Notes under the pieces: generated by a model
The model's database searches: none
Told to the model about the DNA's origin: nothing
What the model saw: only the letters and a program-made list of their open reading frames with translations
Program-made: the position numbers and the translations under genes
In this document: positions 39,856 through 46,758 of the stretch, one piece after another
How the letters are laid out: the number at the start of each line of letters is the position of its first letter
Position numbering within the stretch: position 1 is the first letter of the stretch
Origin: an uncultured Actinomycetota bacterium
Lineage (GTDB): Bacteria; Actinomycetota; Thermoleophilia; RBG-16-64-13
Reading direction: 5' to 3'
DNA length: 64,000 nt
Assembly: GCA_963822135.1 (NCBI GenBank)
Contig: CAWGGI010000004.1
Location: forward strand, 156,290 to 220,289

Positions 39856-39945
39856 GGAGAGGTGGCAGAGCTGGCTTAATGCGGCGGTCTCGAAAACCGT
39901 TGTGCCGTGCAAACGGTACCGGGGGTTCGAATCCCCCCCTCTCCG
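39856..39945 (+). tRNA. tRNA-Ser(CGA)
   Basis: GGAGAGG/CCTCTCC acceptor stem; GCGGT-CTCGAAA-ACCGT anticodon arm; long variable arm; GGGGGTTCGAATCCCCC. Confidence 0.97.
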
Positions 39946-40131
39946 TAGATTCTCCCGCGCAAGCGGAGGCGGCAGCTCACAGGAGGGCCGGGGATTCCGA
40001 ACCCGCGAGGGCGTGAGCGTCAGCGAGACAGTCCCTTTGGATTGTCGAGCAGCGAGCGGTCTGAGCTGAGCCGGACGGCGAGGCGAGGACGGCAGCTTGC
40101 GAAGCAAGATGCGCGAATCCCCCCCTCTCCG
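39946..40131 (+). repeat. tRNA-linked structured insert ending in an exact 18-bp copy of the tRNA 3' end
   Basis: CGAATCCCCCCCTCTCCG at 39928-39945 and 40114-40131; internal inverted T-arm copy and hairpins. Confidence 0.7.
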
Positions 40132-40270
40132 CTTAGGAAAGCCAAGAATCGCACGTTGGAACTCGGCACGAGTGGCCAGGTTCTTGCGTCTTTCAGGCGA
40201 GTTCGGGGGCAGGTCGGGGGCAAACTCGATAGCAGGCAGGGTAACGAGACGGACGAGAGGACATCGCGGA
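40114..40270 (+). repeat. att-like array repeat, copy 1
   Basis: tRNA end + CTTAGGAAAGCCAAGAA...GCGTCTTTCAGGCGAGTTCGGGGGCAGGTCGGGGGCAAA...GACGGACG. Confidence 0.85.
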
Positions 40271-40515
40271 TACTGGTGTACCTCCCGCATGGCGCCGGTG
40301 TTTCTCAGGGTCAGGTACCCGGGGACGGCCGCCAGCCGACGCACCTTCCCACGCCTCTCCGCAATCTATCCGTTTGGTATTACACTACTGATATAGGCCT
40401 GCGCATCGTCCGGCTGATGCGGCACGTTTGGCCATCGACCAGAGCGGGAATCGCTCCGTAATTCTCGAGTCGCCAGATGCCTGGGCAAAACGTCGTCGTC
40501 CGCGGGGGTCAAAGA

Positions 40516-42360
40516 ATGAGAGCGAAGCTCTTCATCGCAACGCTGATCGTTTCGTCCTTGTTGCTGCTGGTGTTCGGTGCGCTATTCGTCAACGCGTCAG
40601 GAGACAAGCCGGGCGTCTTCCCTGGGCTGGGGAAGGCGTCGGCCGTCCTATGTGCCGGATGAAGTAATCGTCCAGTTCAAGAACGACGCCCAACCTTTCA
40701 GGGTGATCAAGGTCCCGTCCGGACAGGTGAAGGCCCAGGTAGCCCTGTATTCCCATAACCCAAACGTGGTCTACGCGGAGCCTAACTACATCGCTCAGGC
40801 TTTCTCGTGGCCCGACGATGCACTCTATCCCCGTCAGTGGAACTTCGGCACGGCGGCTGCCGGTGGGATCGGGATGGAGCAAGCTTGGGGCACGCCTGCC
40901 ATGGGAACTGGAGTGACCGTGGCGATCGTTGACACGGGGATCGCGTACGAGAACTACTCGTCCTACGTGAAGGCGCCCGACCTGGCTGCGACGGCTTTCG
41001 TGCCCGGGTACGATTTCGTGAACGGTGACACCCATGCCAATGACGACAATAGCCATGGGACTCACGTAGCCGGGACCGTAGCACAAAGCACGAACAACAC
41101 CATCGGCGTCGCCGGCATCGCCTACGGGGCGACCCTCATGCCGGTGAAGGTGCTCAACAGCTCGGGCTCTGGTAGTTATTCAACATCGCCAGCGGAATCC
41201 GCTGGGCAGCCGACCACGGGGCGAAGGTCATCAACATGAGCCTTGGAGGTTCCTTGCCGTCGACCACGCTAAAGAATGCCCTTGCCTATGCCTACAACAA
41301 GGGCGTGACCATCGTGGCAGCGGCCGGTAACAACGGCTCGAGCCGGGTCAGCTATCCGGCAGCGTACGACGACTACGTGATCGCCGTTGGTGCCACTCGC
41401 TACGACAAGACGCTGGCCTACTATTCCAACTACGGGTCCAGCTTGACCTCGTCGCTCCCGGAGGCGACGCGACCGTCGATCAGAACGGCGATGGCTATGG
41501 CGATGGCATCCTGCAGAACACGTTCGATCCGGACACCAAGAACGTCTCGGATTTCGAGCTACTGGTTCTTCCAGGGGACGTCGATGGCTTGCCCCCACGT
41601 TGCCGGGGTAACGGCGCTGCTGATCGGCAACGGAGTGGCGGCCACTCCGAACCAGGTGCGGGCCGCGCTCCAGGGAAGCGCTCTGGATCTGGGGGCTAGC
41701 GGCTGGGACGCTACCTATGGCTGGGGACTGCTGGATGCGTACGCGGCGCTCCATTGGGGCGCGGCGACCAACCTGCCGCCTGTCGCAAATGCGGGAATTG
41801 ACCAAAGCGTTCACGTGGGCGACACGGTGCACTTCGACGGCTCGGCCTCGACGGACCCGGAGGAAGGGGCTCTGACCTACAGCTGGGACTTCGGTGATGG
41901 CACCGCATCGGCGACCGGAGTGACAGCGGATCACATCTACACGACCACCGGAACATATACGGTGACACTCATGGTCACCGATCCAGAAGGACTGACGAGG
42001 TAGGATACCGCCACCGTTCAAGCGGATGCCGCGCCGGTAGGCGATGGGGAGCTCCACATTTCTTTCATCGACGTGGTGCTCAAGCCCGCCGGCAAGAACC
42101 TGAGCGCTCAGGCGACGATCACGATTGTTGACGGCCTTGACAACCCGGTGGTGGGGGCAGTGGTTTCCGGTACTTGGAGCGGCCTTACCAGCGACAGCGA
42201 CTCCGGAACGACCGGCACCAACGGGCAAGTGGTGCTGGAGTCCAACAAGGTGAAGAATGCGAAGAGTGGATATACCTTCACCTTCACCGTCAACGGTGTC
42301 GTGTTTGGCGGTTGGACCTGGGACGGGTCCAATGCAACTGCCTCGGAATACGTTCCGTAG
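40516..42360 (+). CDS. S8 subtilisin-like serine protease with PKD domain (frameshifted)
   Basis: Signal peptide, YAEPNY propeptide, VAIVDTG, HGTHVAGT, AAAGN, GTSMACPHVAG, YSWDFGDG. Confidence 0.92.
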
Positions 42361-42509
42361 GCGACGACTTCACATCGACGCCCGAAGGCACGAGCCCAGG
42401 GGCCACGTATCACTGCAACTTCAGGCCCACTCCTTCCAGGTCGGGTAGCACGTACGAGCGGTGCCAAGGCGCTGAGTCCAGTGCAGCGCCACGATGTTGA
42501 CGCTCAACC

Positions 42510-42690
42510 TGCCGTGCAAACGGTACCGGGGGTTCGAACTTCCCCTCTCCGCTCAAAAAGCCACAAATCGTGTGCCGAGACCCGGCCCGGGGGCTGGGTT
42601 TTCGCGTCTTTCGGGCGAGTTCGGGGGCAGGTCGGGGGCAAAGTGGACAACAGCAGACGGAACATGACGGACGCAGACACACGGTTGCTC
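42510..42690 (+). repeat. att-like array repeat, copy 2
   Basis: TGCCGTGCAAACGGTACCGGGGGTTCGAA...CCCCTCTCCG + CGCGTCTTTCGGGCGAGTTCGGGGGCAGGTCGGGGGCAAA...GACGGACG. Confidence 0.88.
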
Positions 42691-42925
42691 GCGTCGGTGC
42701 TCCTGCCGAGGATGGAGGTAGGGGCTCCACGCCTCGCACAATAGTGCAATGCCAGACCGAGTATTGGGCTATTTCGTCGATCTCCTGCCCGACCACCCAA
42801 CGCCACGGTTGGCCGCTACCAAGCCTTGCCAGCCGGAGGCCCTCGGGTCAACTCTTGCTCTTGCGACGCTGCCGGCCCGGACCTATGCTCTGTTTGTTGC
42901 ACCGCCCGCGTGGGAAGGAGCGGAA

Positions 42926-45308: not shown

Positions 45309-45495
45309 CCGTTGTGCCATGCAAACGGTACCGGGAGTTCGAATCCCCCTCTCCGCTTAGGAAAGCCAAGAAACGTGTGTAGAGACCGGGTCCCCGTGGC
45401 CCGGTTTCCGCGTCTTTCAGGCGAGTTCGGGGGCAAGTCGGGGGCAAACACAACGGCGCTCACGGGCGCCAGACGGACGAGAACACATCGGACAG
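45309..45495 (+). repeat. att-like array repeat, copy 4 (most complete)
   Basis: CCGTTGTGCCATGCAAACGGTACCGGGAGTTCGAATCCCCCTCTCCG + CTTAGGAAAGCCAAGAA...GCGTCTTTCAGGCGAGTTCGGGGGCAAGTCGGGGGCAAA...AGACGGACGAGA. Confidence 0.9.
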
Positions 45496-45518
45496 CCGAA
45501 CGAACGGCGCGATCAAGC

Positions 45519-45986
45519 CTAGACGGCCGTGGTCTCCTTCATTGGCTCCGCCTCGATAATGCGCTTCAGGTTGTGCATGCCACGCTCATAGATTTGGTCC
45601 CACTTGCGCCGCAACAGGAGAGCGTCCGCTAGAGGACCGACCACGGGTGGCTCCGGATCGTATTCAAGCGCGAAGGTAACCCGGGTCGACTCACCTACCG
45701 GCTCAAAGCGCCAGTACTTCCGCGCCACTATTCCCATGAGCGGCGCCGTGAAGGTCCACCCGTTGCGCTCGTCGTACTCGATCGTCTCCCACTCGCTGGT
45801 CATCTTGCGGCCCAGATAGGTGAGGTGCACCAAGTATCTTGCTCCCTTGCCCTCGGTGTTCTCGGTGAGAGGCTTCACTTCTTGGATGTAGTCAAGGTAC
45901 CGCGGGATAGTGCGCCAATCGCGGGTGAAACGAAGAACGTCCTCTGGCGGCCTTGCAACGACTATCTGCTTCTCGATTCTCGTCAT
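45519..45986 (-). CDS. SRPBCC (polyketide cyclase/START) family protein
   Basis: IEKQIVVARPPEDV..F..DW..IP.Y, W.FEPVG..TRVT, NLKRIIEA. Confidence 0.85.
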   Translation of the reverse strand: MTRIEKQIVVARPPEDVLRFTRDWRTIPRYLDYIQEVKPLTENTEGKGARYLVHLTYLGRKMTSEWETIEYDERNGWTFTAPLMGIVARKYWRFEPVGESTRVTFALEYDPEPPVVGPLADALLLRRKWDQIYERGMHNLKRIIEAEPMKETTAV

Positions 45987-46219
45987 GGCCCGGCCTCCCC
46001 ATACAGATGCACGAGACTCTTCTACTCATACTACGTCAAGGGGGATCGCCGTCAACCCGAGCGCAACTCCTTGCGGCAAACGGTACCTGCCATCCCAGCG
46101 ACAAGGCCACTGGATCACGAGCGCTGCCTGGATGCCCCAGAGCCTCTGCACCGCTGCATACTCTCCATCGAAACGGGGAAGATGGCAGCCATCCTGCGCA
46201 CTACCATCGGAGGCGGCAG

Positions 46220-46594
46220 ATGGCTAACGTTGTGGTCTGGGCTGACATCCCCGTGCTCGATCTGGAGCGCGCTCGCGCGTTCTATGCACATCTTCTGGGC
46301 ACCCCCGTGGAGTACATGCCGGGCACCGAAGGGGTGGCCCTCCTCATGCCGCCTGGGACAGGTGACCCCATGGACGTGAGTGCGGATCTGGCCCTGGGCC
46401 AGTCGATCCCGAGCACCACTCACGGCACGACGATCTATCTTGATTCGAAGGGAGACATCGACGGAATGCTGGCCAGAGCGGTGGAGGCTGGCGGGAGTGT
46501 CCTGGCCGAGAAGGCATTTGTGGACAAGGTAGGCTGGCTGGCCCATGTGAAGGACACCGAGGGCAACCGAATAGGCATCCATCAGCCCGGTTAG
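46220..46594 (+). CDS. VOC/glyoxalase family protein
   Basis: VVWADIPVLDLERARAFY, AVEAGG.VL, DTEGNRIGIH. Confidence 0.9.
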   Translation: MANVVVWADIPVLDLERARAFYAHLLGTPVEYMPGTEGVALLMPPGTGDPMDVSADLALGQSIPSTTHGTTIYLDSKGDIDGMLARAVEAGGSVLAEKAFVDKVGWLAHVKDTEGNRIGIHQPG

Positions 46595-46595
46595 C

Positions 46596-46693
46596 CCGCG
46601 GACCGGGCTCTCGAGTCTTGCGCACGAGTTCGGTGGCAATTCGGAACCCCGTGCAGTTCGAGCGCTGGAGCGCTTAGGAAAGCCAAGAAACGG
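46596..46693 (+). repeat. att-like array repeat, degenerate pieces (copy 5)
   Basis: GGACCGGGCTCTCGAGTCTTGCGCACGAGTTCGGTGGCAATTCGG, then CGCTTAGGAAAGCCAAGAAACG. Confidence 0.65.
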
Positions 46694-46758
46694 CTCCTGG
46701 TCACTGAAGTCGTCTGAGAGGAACCTGTGGAGGGCTGGCAAAGCGTCACGGAGGGACG

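Follow-up and report, generated by a model that had tools for sequence, protein, structure and literature searches.

The 64-kb stretch of DNA analysed here (the window) contains, at positions 39855..39946 of the plus strand, a gene for tRNA-Ser(CGA) (ARAGORN; Rfam RF00005, 55.8 bits) that anchors an array of small gene cassettes separated by copies of a ~170-nt sequence, hereafter the unit, which in its full form begins with the 3′ part of the tRNA and ends with an arm carrying two tandem sites; behind the tRNA gene the unit is present three times in nearly full form and twice as the arm alone, besides two small remnants. The window comes from a metagenome-assembled genome (MAG) of 3.08 Mb in 11 contigs, 57.6% complete, designated G000; the other G numbers stand for related genome assemblies and the L numbers for fetched loci. 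A repeat recurring in the same orientation behind tRNA-Ser(CGA) had been described in an earlier note, in which the locus was read as an integron-like platform of cassettes captured at a tRNA gene by an integrase acting in trans; a repeat search and a unit profile, built from four window copies and run with nhmmer, place all the copies where they had been claimed to be.

Unit copy 1 (40114..40262, +; nhmmer and alignment) consists of the last 18 nt of the tRNA, a trailer box, a hairpin and the arm sites, and matches the profile at 40113-40261 (columns 23-171, E=1.8e-43). Copies 2 and 4 are full: the former (42504..42680, +; nhmmer, repeat families D1-D4) matches at 42513-42680 (columns 2-172, E=3.2e-46), its tRNA homology starting at 42504, and the latter (45309..45486, +; nhmmer, BLAST) at 45318-45486 (columns 2-172, E=2e-48), its tRNA homology starting at 45309 and corresponding to tRNA positions 43-83 (95%, BLAST), i.e., just 3′ of the anticodon loop, as had been observed before. 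Copy 3 (44386..44478, +; nhmmer match at 44392-44478, columns 83-169, E=4.7e-15) is an arm devoid of tRNA piece and trailer. Farther downstream are a 12-nt tRNA remnant (46076..46087, +) and a degraded pair of units (46594..46693, +; nhmmer, repeat families D3 and D5) made up of a hairpin with an arm fragment (46594-46645; profile match 46598-46645, columns 80-128, E=0.0033) and of a decayed tRNA end with an exact trailer box (46660-46693; 22-mer at 46671-46692).

The six cassettes so delimited lack a recombinase, and their cargoes are unrelated to one another, the assignments of the earlier note being upheld by Pfam and Rfam. Cassette 1 (interval 40263..42503, +) encodes, in several frames, a secreted subtilase with a PKD domain (gene 40517-42360; Peptidase_S8, Fervidolysin_NPro-like and PKD_4 on the open reading frames (ORFs) 40577-41239 and 41236-42003). 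Cassette 2 (42681..44385, +) comprises a lipoprotein-like ORF (42926-43327), a c-di-GMP-I-GGC riboswitch (43620-43699; RF03167, 63.3 bits for a cut-off of 59) and a Cys-rich secreted ORF (43859-44278), neither ORF matching a Pfam family; here a riboswitch lies 160 nt upstream of a gene for a 139-aa Cys-rich secreted protein inside a mobile-looking cassette. Cassette 3 (interval 44479..45308, +) carries a gene for an S-adenosylmethionine-dependent methyltransferase (44617-45290; Methyltransf_11/25 on ORF 44723-45046) which, on reading the sequence, appears frameshifted. Cassette 4 (45519..45986, -) holds an SRPBCC gene (Polyketide_cyc2, Pfam E=1.9e-21), cassette 5 (46220..46594, +) a gene for a VOC/glyoxalase-fold protein (Pfam Glyoxalase, E=1.3e-06) and cassette 6 (46759..47556, +) a gene for a HalD-like 2-oxoglutarate (2OG)-Fe(II) oxygenase (Pfam HalD, E=6.8e-11); in G004 the same truncated trailer box precedes the same 2OG oxygenase gene. 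Compared with the contigs of one public run, the window shows 1-nt indels at 41556, 41999, 42003, 42796 and 45988; some of the frame breaks in the subtilase and methyltransferase genes may thus be consensus errors or strain differences rather than marks of pseudogenes, and for this reason we do not insist on the subtilase being one.

Between the tRNA gene and copy 1 lies an element that the earlier note, right as to the unit itself, had missed, namely a non-coding mini-insert of ~167 nt (39947..40113, +) flanked by a 17-nt direct repeat that extends from the T-loop to the 3′ end of the tRNA. According to BLAST, copies 91-95% identical to it occur in G009, L149 (3), L112 (2), L083, L156, L186, L201 and L104; in all, at least nine other contigs have such copies behind the tRNA gene or behind tRNA pieces inside the array, with no more than three per contig and a length ranging from ~125 to 167 nt. 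A further copy is found in the same genome at C1:151575-151688 (-), 90.6% identical, behind tRNA-Ser(GGA), and its repeat matches the 3′ end of that tRNA. In its behaviour the mini-insert resembles a non-coding member of this insertion system or of a related one, in which the exchange would occur in the T-loop.

The unit is not spread over the genome in the manner of repetitive extragenic palindromes or miniature inverted-repeat transposable elements, a possibility that the earlier note had itself raised. Indeed, the nhmmer search of the 3.08 Mb returns, besides the window locus, one further full copy (C4:22857-23009, -), the rest being weak matches to other tRNA-Ser genes, and the reversed pattern used as a control gives 0 matches in the same genome and 1 across 61 genomes. 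The solitary copy borders a low-GC island which ends at a tRNA-Met gene (32049-32125) and contains a tyrosine integrase broken by two TGA codons (about 30274-31938).

Outside this genome the distribution follows the lineage. Among 60 relatives (36 of the same family and 24 of other families of the class), which do not represent independent samples, the arm motif is present in 17, namely in 16 of the 36 and in one of the 24, in the latter case with two mismatches. A scan for the exact pattern in one genome for each of 185,579 species yields 58 stretches, 57 of which have titles naming Actinomycetota, Actinomycetes, Thermoleophilia or Gaiellales while the remaining one is titled only “bacterium”; an additional 117 stretches with the arm pattern come from metagenome contigs, and the viral contigs searched with this pattern give 0 matches. 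Arrays of the same architecture are present in many independently assembled MAGs and metagenome contigs, which speaks against the suspicion, also voiced at the outset, that the duplications are created by assembly.

The anchoring to the tRNA is equally regular. In all of the 14 loci in which a tRNA-Ser(CGA) gene is in view (G001, G003, G004, G006 at both C4 and C3, G008, G009, G012, G015, G016, G024, G033, G081 and G000) a unit or a same-strand array is found directly behind it. The number of units is 1 in G003, 2 in G004, 3 in G009, 6 in G018, 7 each in G000, G015 and G024, 8 in G001, 14 in both G006 and G012 and 18 in G008, and reaches 30, over at least 66 kb, in G062. Some units depart from this rule: the one of G008:C8 is solitary, one in G018:C10 lies 1.2 kb behind tRNA-Ser(TGA), one in L172 is arm-only and follows tRNA-Arg(CCT), and the last is the distant copy of G000. 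Within the 30-unit array of G062 (C6, loci L263 and L264) there are also genes for tRNA-Arg(CCG), tRNA-Lys(CTT) and tRNA-Glu(CTC) at 26359-29432; in G006, 59% complete, the two tRNA-Ser(CGA) loci with units (C4, and C3 = L277 7272-8685) may reflect either a duplication or a mixed bin. The claim that the repeats represent copies of an attachment site at a tRNA gene is supported, an intact tRNA being combined with 3′ fragments on the same strand. The same unit is found, with different cassettes, in related genomes.

The alignment of 184 distinct full copies defines the anatomy of the unit. The variable arm, the T-arm and the 3′ strand of the acceptor of the tRNA come first and are followed by the trailer box (CTTAGGAAAGCCAAGAA) and by a variable spacer; a GC-rich hairpin and then TTTTCGCGTCTTT, together resembling the terminator of the tRNA, precede the arm, GCGAGTTCGGNGGCAANTCGGGGGCAAA, in which two direct sites of ~11 bp, each corresponding to TTCGGNGGCAA, are placed one helical turn apart, and a looser GAGACGGACG box after the tandem sites ends the unit. 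The first part of what the earlier note had called the arm turns out to be the tRNA trailer with the terminator-like hairpin. The arm motif falls within units in 141 of its 188 matches, and right-arm sites are present in most units. The hairpin stems are mostly invariant with few compensatory changes, and the consensus fold of the 184 units contains only one short hairpin of 4 pairs and one stem of 4 pairs. No Rfam family is assigned, at E<=1 over 39000-47000, to either the unit or the mini-insert, the matches to Plastid-psbl-rps4 having been rejected as the antisense of tRNA-Ser.

Conservation within these units is distributed in blocks. The mean information amounts to 1.67 bits for T-arm and acceptor, 1.59 for the arm sites, ~1.5 for the hairpin stems and 1.23 for the trailer, compared to 0.46-0.72 for spacers and loops and 0.39 for the tail; to the left of the tRNA piece the alignment displays no conservation. 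Moreover, an exact T-loop with a 5/5-paired stem is found in 112 of the 184 units, while real tRNA genes account for only ~21 of 228 anchored copies. There is a simple reason for the tRNA end, the trailer and the terminator to be kept, since a unit landing beside the 5′ half of a tRNA becomes the 3′ end of a working gene; the tandem sites, which have no such role in the tRNA, are on sequence grounds the candidate protein-binding part.

These data bear directly on the main rival explanation, according to which the units are the decayed residue of successive full-size islands that carried their integrase and then lost it along with most of their genes by deletion, the small intervals being no longer mobile and changing only by deletion, drift and homologous exchange. 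Neutral scars should decay evenly, and the block-wise conservation together with the preserved T-arm is therefore unlike them: blocks of 1.5-1.7 bits persist over copies belonging to several genera amid spacers of ~0.5 bits, and the T-arm pairing is maintained in copies lying outside any tRNA. The scale of the arrays, with a median interval of 1.7 kb and up to 30 members, also argues against such an origin. On the other hand, partial units are common, the frames of subtilase and methyltransferase read as shifted (even if some of the shifts may be consensus errors), and beyond cassette 6 the array of the window fades into a stretch devoid of units (47644..49335; Pfam, dc-megablast) that encodes a DUF1697 protein (47668-48216) and a hemerythrin (48226-48924) and is homologous (75-76%, dc-megablast) to array cassettes of G006 (24398-24970, 43449-42782 and 26951-27329); to judge from this homology, the stretch is probably the decayed tail of the array.

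The presence of a terminator-like hairpin with a T-run in each full unit, and the derivation of the window from a MAG of modest completeness with possible indel errors, could suggest that no mobile DNA is involved at all and that a regulatory or structural module (a terminator with an operator or insulator) was duplicated locally, or that the array is an assembly artefact. Both are very improbable in view of the recurrence of the same architecture in independent MAGs and metagenome contigs of diverse provenance, of the tRNA 3′ part found in every full unit, of the cargo that differs from genome to genome, and of the integrases of a single clade that reside inside the arrays.

As to the cargo, 105 intervals from 11 arrays, with 276 ORFs, were considered after merging the unit hits. 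The median interval is 1665 bp, 38 intervals being shorter than 1 kb and 62 shorter than 2 kb; most members of the arrays, the six of the window among them, measure 0.5-2.4 kb and contain one to three cargo genes, and the ORFs show no strand bias (149+/127-). Only 9 protein clusters are common to two or more genomes, so that the cargo is nearly disjoint between related arrays; the cassette content varies from genome to genome while the repeat persists, a point that the earlier note had proposed to test between strains. The 150 largest ORFs match 167 Pfam families, the commonest being SnoaL (6) and SRPBCC (5), followed by methyltransferases, MFS, PQQ and FMN_red (3 each); they also include 2 Mutator transposases and 2 PF00589 matches, both in G062. 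Overall, SnoaL, SRPBCC, VOC, methyltransferase and small secreted proteins dominate the cargo. A defence-like cargo was seen in G033:C28 (L261, 5129-6259), where a cassette protein contains a CAP12/Pycsar-type TIR effector domain (E=2.2e-15).

The few shared cassettes are informative. The SRPBCC cassette is present in G000, G006, G024 and G062, at the same rank in the first two and in the second interval in the other two, and in all four genomes it has the same arm subtype at its left and, at its right, a tRNA piece whose left border is shared. The four-genome alignment confirms the 12-nt piece at 46076, the cassette ending with a tRNA piece from the same position in the three other genomes. 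Boundaries of this kind are what a circle carrying one unit would give. In G001 and G008 two cassettes occur in opposite order. Cargo has, furthermore, passed between species: the window segment 46730-47563 shares 97.7% identity with the only cassette of G004, located between its two units, versus 71-84% for the core flanks, and a cassette common to G008 and G012, which belong to different genera, is 90.7% identical versus ~72% for its flanks.

Transfers of this type introduce the second rival explanation, in which the unit acts mainly as a portable block of RecA-dependent homology through which cassettes are gained, lost and exchanged, with circles entering by a single crossover or incoming linear DNA by a double crossover between units, and the integrase serves only the large elements from which the unit was originally seeded. 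The length and likeness (80-90%) of the units, the variability of their left borders, the breaking of near-identical contigs at different positions of the unit and the replacement of cargo in gene-sized blocks of identity would all suit this mechanism, as would the persistence of arrays in genomes without integrase and of cassettes without left-hand (P) arm sites. It leaves unexplained, however, why the tandem sites, GCGTCTTT and the trailer box are selectively conserved with respect to the adjacent spacers, why tandem sites recur on the left side of the core of the G081 element described below and why the 17-nt repeats of the mini-insert match whichever tRNA-Ser gene hosts it; we therefore regard it as quite unlikely to be the principal process.

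An integrase is missing from the window, as had been claimed: PF00589 and PF00239 have no match, and neither do PF00665, PF01609 and PF00872, so that the parallel claim concerning transposases holds for the families searched, other transposase families lying outside this search. Likewise, six-frame searches with PF00589 reveal nothing either within the arrays of G006, G008, G012 and G015 or next to them (the nearest match in G012 being ~48 kb away), and neither serine recombinases nor members of the three transposase families are found at the arrays. The situation is different when all the fetched loci (1.22 Mb) are scanned with a local tyrosine-recombinase profile, which matches 17 ORFs in 13 loci. 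With a protein search across the family and larger fetches added, a single clade of tyrosine integrases, 64-87% identical among themselves, is located inside tRNA-Ser(CGA) arrays in 8 assemblies, all other than that of the window: G033 (381 aa) and G081 have it intact, in G034 the end of the contig cuts it, in G062, G072 (same sequence as L075/L219) and L223 it is broken or truncated, and two further MAGs (loci L078/L101 and L057) have fragments. A matching tyrosine recombinase, such as the earlier note had proposed to look for elsewhere, does exist inside such arrays.

The G033 enzyme consists of PF00589 (E=5.5e-28) and SAM_3 domains; its nearest solved structure is that of the Tn1549 Int (6en0, E=5.5e-12), and a gene with an HTH_17 domain, hence excisionase-like, is found near it. 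More distant homologues (45-51% identity) adjoin other tRNA genes, toward which they are convergently oriented, an arrangement that is usual for tRNA-targeting integrases. Tyrosine integrases also reportedly have preferred sublocations within tRNA genes, a generalization attributed to Williams (2002). The possibility that XerC/D are the enzymes involved, considered in view of the presence of only two PF00589 matches in G008, was dropped because the repeats are direct and not inverted as in dif, and because a dedicated integrase clade exists. A second, short PF00589 protein (~160-200 aa) is encoded 2-5 kb beyond the main integrase in G062 (L263:6412-7017) and in G081 (L262:16126-16614); the two are 82% identical as DNA, and a protein of G012 shares 83% identity with this one.

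The only complete integrase-bearing element in view is that of G081, a lower-GC segment of ~18.7 kb behind the tRNA gene and its unit, the G033 element running off its contig. At its right end two tandem arm sites are followed, after ~110-150 nt, by a tRNA piece starting in the anticodon loop, beyond which a truncated mini-insert gives way to the chromosome; since this native flank has no arm, the arm must belong to the element and not to the ancestral chromosome. In this element, a single case, arm sites thus flank the tRNA core on both sides. The same arrangement characterizes the classical attP of lambda and Tn916/Tn1549, and the tandem arm sites about one helical turn apart, the core in the anticodon loop or T-loop and the regenerated 3′ end are likewise those of arm-dependent tyrosine integrases. 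The resemblance to arm-type sites that the tandem sites derive from their position on both sides of the G081 core suggests that they are bound by the integrase, and the borders would place the crossover in the anticodon loop for ends of the G081 type and in the T-loop for the mini-insert. The difference from a classical attP is that the two-sided arms are confined to G081, the ~100 cassette units examined having the right arm only.

Taken together, these results lead us to favour, with a probability of roughly 58%, the interpretation that the locus is a tRNA-anchored accretion array composed mostly of integrase-less mini-elements that are served in trans. Integrative elements, restricted to a single family of uncultured Thermoleophilia, would insert into the 3′ part of tRNA-Ser(CGA), each insertion bringing its own tRNA 3′ part, trailer, terminator-like hairpin and right-hand arm with two tandem sites. 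The tRNA gene would therefore stay intact, the previous unit would be pushed downstream, and the repetition of the event would produce successive intervals with one ~170-nt unit at the head of each. The autonomous members would possess a Tn916/Tn1549-like tyrosine integrase, in whose N-terminal part a weak arm-binding signature is seen, an HTH_17 excisionase-like protein and arms on both sides; these rare members would supply the integrase to small cassettes that keep the core and the right arm only, and cassettes would be shuffled and lost through site-specific or homologous recombination between units. We infer that the small cassettes are, or recently were, moved by the integrase of this clade in trans or together with their neighbours. 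In keeping with the properties of islands inserted in tRNA genes (tDNA), insertion is at the 3′ part of the tRNA and the gene is regenerated, an integrase being present inside the arrays of relatives and absent from the window; and as in the cis- or trans-mobilizable elements of accretion arrays (CIME-like), which are flanked by att sites and devoid of integration and transfer genes, all six window intervals are flanked by units and are without matches to the five families searched.

Several observations weigh against this interpretation. Left-hand arm sites are present in one element only, that of G081: the G062 element, with its broken integrase, has none before its next unit, and 0 of ~100 internal units have plus-strand arm sites within 250 nt upstream. 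Arm-dependent integrases normally need P-arm sites, and the cassettes lacking them may therefore not be recombination-proficient. Of the earlier note's interpretation, the matching clade inside the arrays of other genomes and the two-sided arm sites of G081 support a part; one-by-one capture or excision of the tiny cassettes by this integrase is putative, and none of those examined has the P arm. The arm-binding signature itself, found in the first 70 residues of the G033 integrase, covers nearly the full Arm-DNA-bind_4 profile (E=0.0021) with a score of 18 bits, i.e., below the cut-off of 22.3. A close homologue of the integrase is lacking from most genomes that have an array; none is found at E<=1e-30 in G000, G006 and G008, which are 58, 59 and 69% complete, respectively, and the best homologues of G001 and G012 (43-47%) are located elsewhere. 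For the source genome this negative result is qualified by its completeness, as an integrase may lie in the missing part of the MAG. The left border of the tRNA homology varies from the anticodon loop to the T-arm, with peaks at tRNA positions 34 and 41 in a distribution confounded by allelic differences of the variable arm, and the partial units (out of 392 distinct hits, 289 begin in profile columns 1-25, 61 are arm-only and 26 tRNA-only) are those that decay would give. The 97.7% block shared with G004 is gene-sized and the adjoining unit remnants are diverged, which points to homologous replacement, and the figure of 276 ORFs depends, for the relatives, on a crude ORF picker of our own. 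A simple capture driven by the integrase is contradicted, in particular, by the lack of left arms, the variability of the left borders and the gene-sized block of transfer.

Read data say little, either way, about present-day mobility. Of the sampled words one public run contained 41%, compared with 8-15% for the others, and all the runs are kept as short contigs; these contigs, with their ambiguous joints only, yielded no excised circle, no empty site and no strain polymorphism at the level of the unit, which is counted against the accretion of mobile mini-elements without being taken as a sign of absence. The 12 joints found in them are mostly unit-to-unit, with sides of 21-48 nt and 90% likeness, and are indistinguishable from cross-matches between similar units. 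Pairs of contigs at least 96% identical provide 22 internal ends, few of which are inside units (at profile columns ~41, 71-73 and 147), too few to map the crossover; on inspection, the divergence begins where the variable arm starts in one pair, and at the hairpin of decayed units in two others.

Some of these facts also suit the derivation of the units from once complete islands. Broken or truncated integrases within arrays (G062, L219/L075, L223), the frequency of partial units, the tail of the G000 array without units, the gene-sized block shared with G004 and the lack of an integrase in the window and of a close homologue in the assembled part of the genome are all to be expected of old scars. 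The absence of P-arm remnants, however, is hard to obtain, as far as one can judge from sequence, by random internal deletion of elements resembling G081, in which these sites lie only ~110 nt from the core, and with the conservation described above this makes the explanation an unlikely one, although it ranks before the homology-based mechanism.

The surroundings of the array deserve brief mention. The upstream flanks are syntenic in G000, G001, G006 and G008, and synteny with G006 resumes at window position 57983; a katG-like gene (36343-38526) and fur (38536-39030) are interposed between the conserved flank and the tRNA in this genome only. Upstream of the tRNA gene there is also a tRNA-Ser-like 3′ piece (39101..39152, +; repeat family D4, 67%; nhmmer E=0.0028), with which an AT-rich stretch begins that contains an ORF with an NfeD domain (39111-39587) and an interrupted DUF2283 ORF (39399-39767, minus strand).

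Tandem islands that include members without their own recombinase have precedents. In staphylococci, composite SCC (staphylococcal cassette chromosome) islands are arranged in tandem at rlmH with short direct repeats, and the ccr-less pseudo-SCC rely on a recombinase provided by a neighbour or in trans; the recombinases are of the serine type, the target is a protein gene, and the elements, several to tens of kb long, are few per array. In Dehalococcoides, as described in the part of the paper considered here (PMC3146451), many islands lie in tandem behind one small-RNA gene, ssrA, 16 with and 15 without an integration module, and movement by accretion or with a helper was proposed for the “cis-mobilizable” members. 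These islands resemble the present cassettes in having a direct repeat of the gene 3′ end at each border and strain-specific contents, but involve, according to the same passages, a serine recombinase, a tmRNA target, a 20-bp repeat and rdhA-rich islands of several kb (PMC3146451); here the enzyme is a tyrosine integrase, the repeat measures ~170 nt and includes trailer, hairpin and tandem sites, the median interval is 1.7 kb, the longest arrays have at least 30 units and few members bear an integrase. In the tycheposons of Prochlorococcus serial integration at one tRNA pushes older elements inward, with partial tRNAs, fragmented integrases and cargo elements as in our case; those described in the relevant passages have integrases, number 1-2 per genome and leave loose remnants, and the same passages contain no regular arrays of short cassettes with a long conserved site, in what is moreover another phylum, although denser arrays may be described in the supplements (bioRxiv 10.1101/2020.12.28.424599).

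The likeness to integrons, and to attC-site clusters without an integron-integrase (CALIN), concerns the small, diverse and mostly single-gene cassettes with one conserved site each and, as far as the survey's relevant sections go, the frequent lack of a nearby integrase and of cassette homologues between genomes; complete integrons were absent from all the Actinobacteria genomes examined in that 2016 survey (bioRxiv 10.1101/030866). The differences are no less evident: there is no IntI (six-frame PF00589) and no common promoter, both strands are used, the site is a tRNA 3′ part with direct and not inverted repeats and, judged by its anatomy, without an attC-type palindrome, each unit has a terminator-like hairpin and one cassette has its own riboswitch. 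Of the integron-like platform postulated by the earlier note, the small cassettes, the single conserved site of each and the varying contents are retained, whereas IntI, attC and co-orientation are not. The array is thus an analogue of the integron and not a member of that family; it differs from the known tDNA arrays, its precedents together with their integrase-less members, in the scale of the cassettes, the long conserved one-sided site, the length of the array, the rarity of the integrase and the host lineage. Among the titles listed by literature searches there was no description of such arrays in this lineage, which is not proof that none exists.

Beyond the accretion array as such, it is tempting to imagine an independent platform of gene capture in uncultured Thermoleophilia, in which the tRNA-Ser 3′ half with its one-sided arm would play the part of attC and attI for at least 30 cassettes over 66 kb, the integrase would be provided transiently by rare autonomous elements, and the same machinery would move non-coding mini-cassettes of ~170 nt into the T-loops of different tRNA-Ser genes; this wider proposal is put forward tentatively, as a possibility to which we give less credit than to the accretion array.

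Should the cassettes be mobile, they would constitute a second, independently evolved route to a flexible gene pool of the integron type which, if the interpretation is true, would be built on a tRNA-targeting, arm-dependent integrase in a Gram-positive lineage known only from metagenomes. The system would also lend itself to asking how integrase-less mini-elements persist, offering a defined 170-nt site, a candidate integrase with its Xis and arrays of 1-30 units. Even on a conservative view, the locus behind tRNA-Ser(CGA) marks the place where this family chiefly accumulates accessory genes, its main hot spot, and is a convenient marker of strain-level variation.

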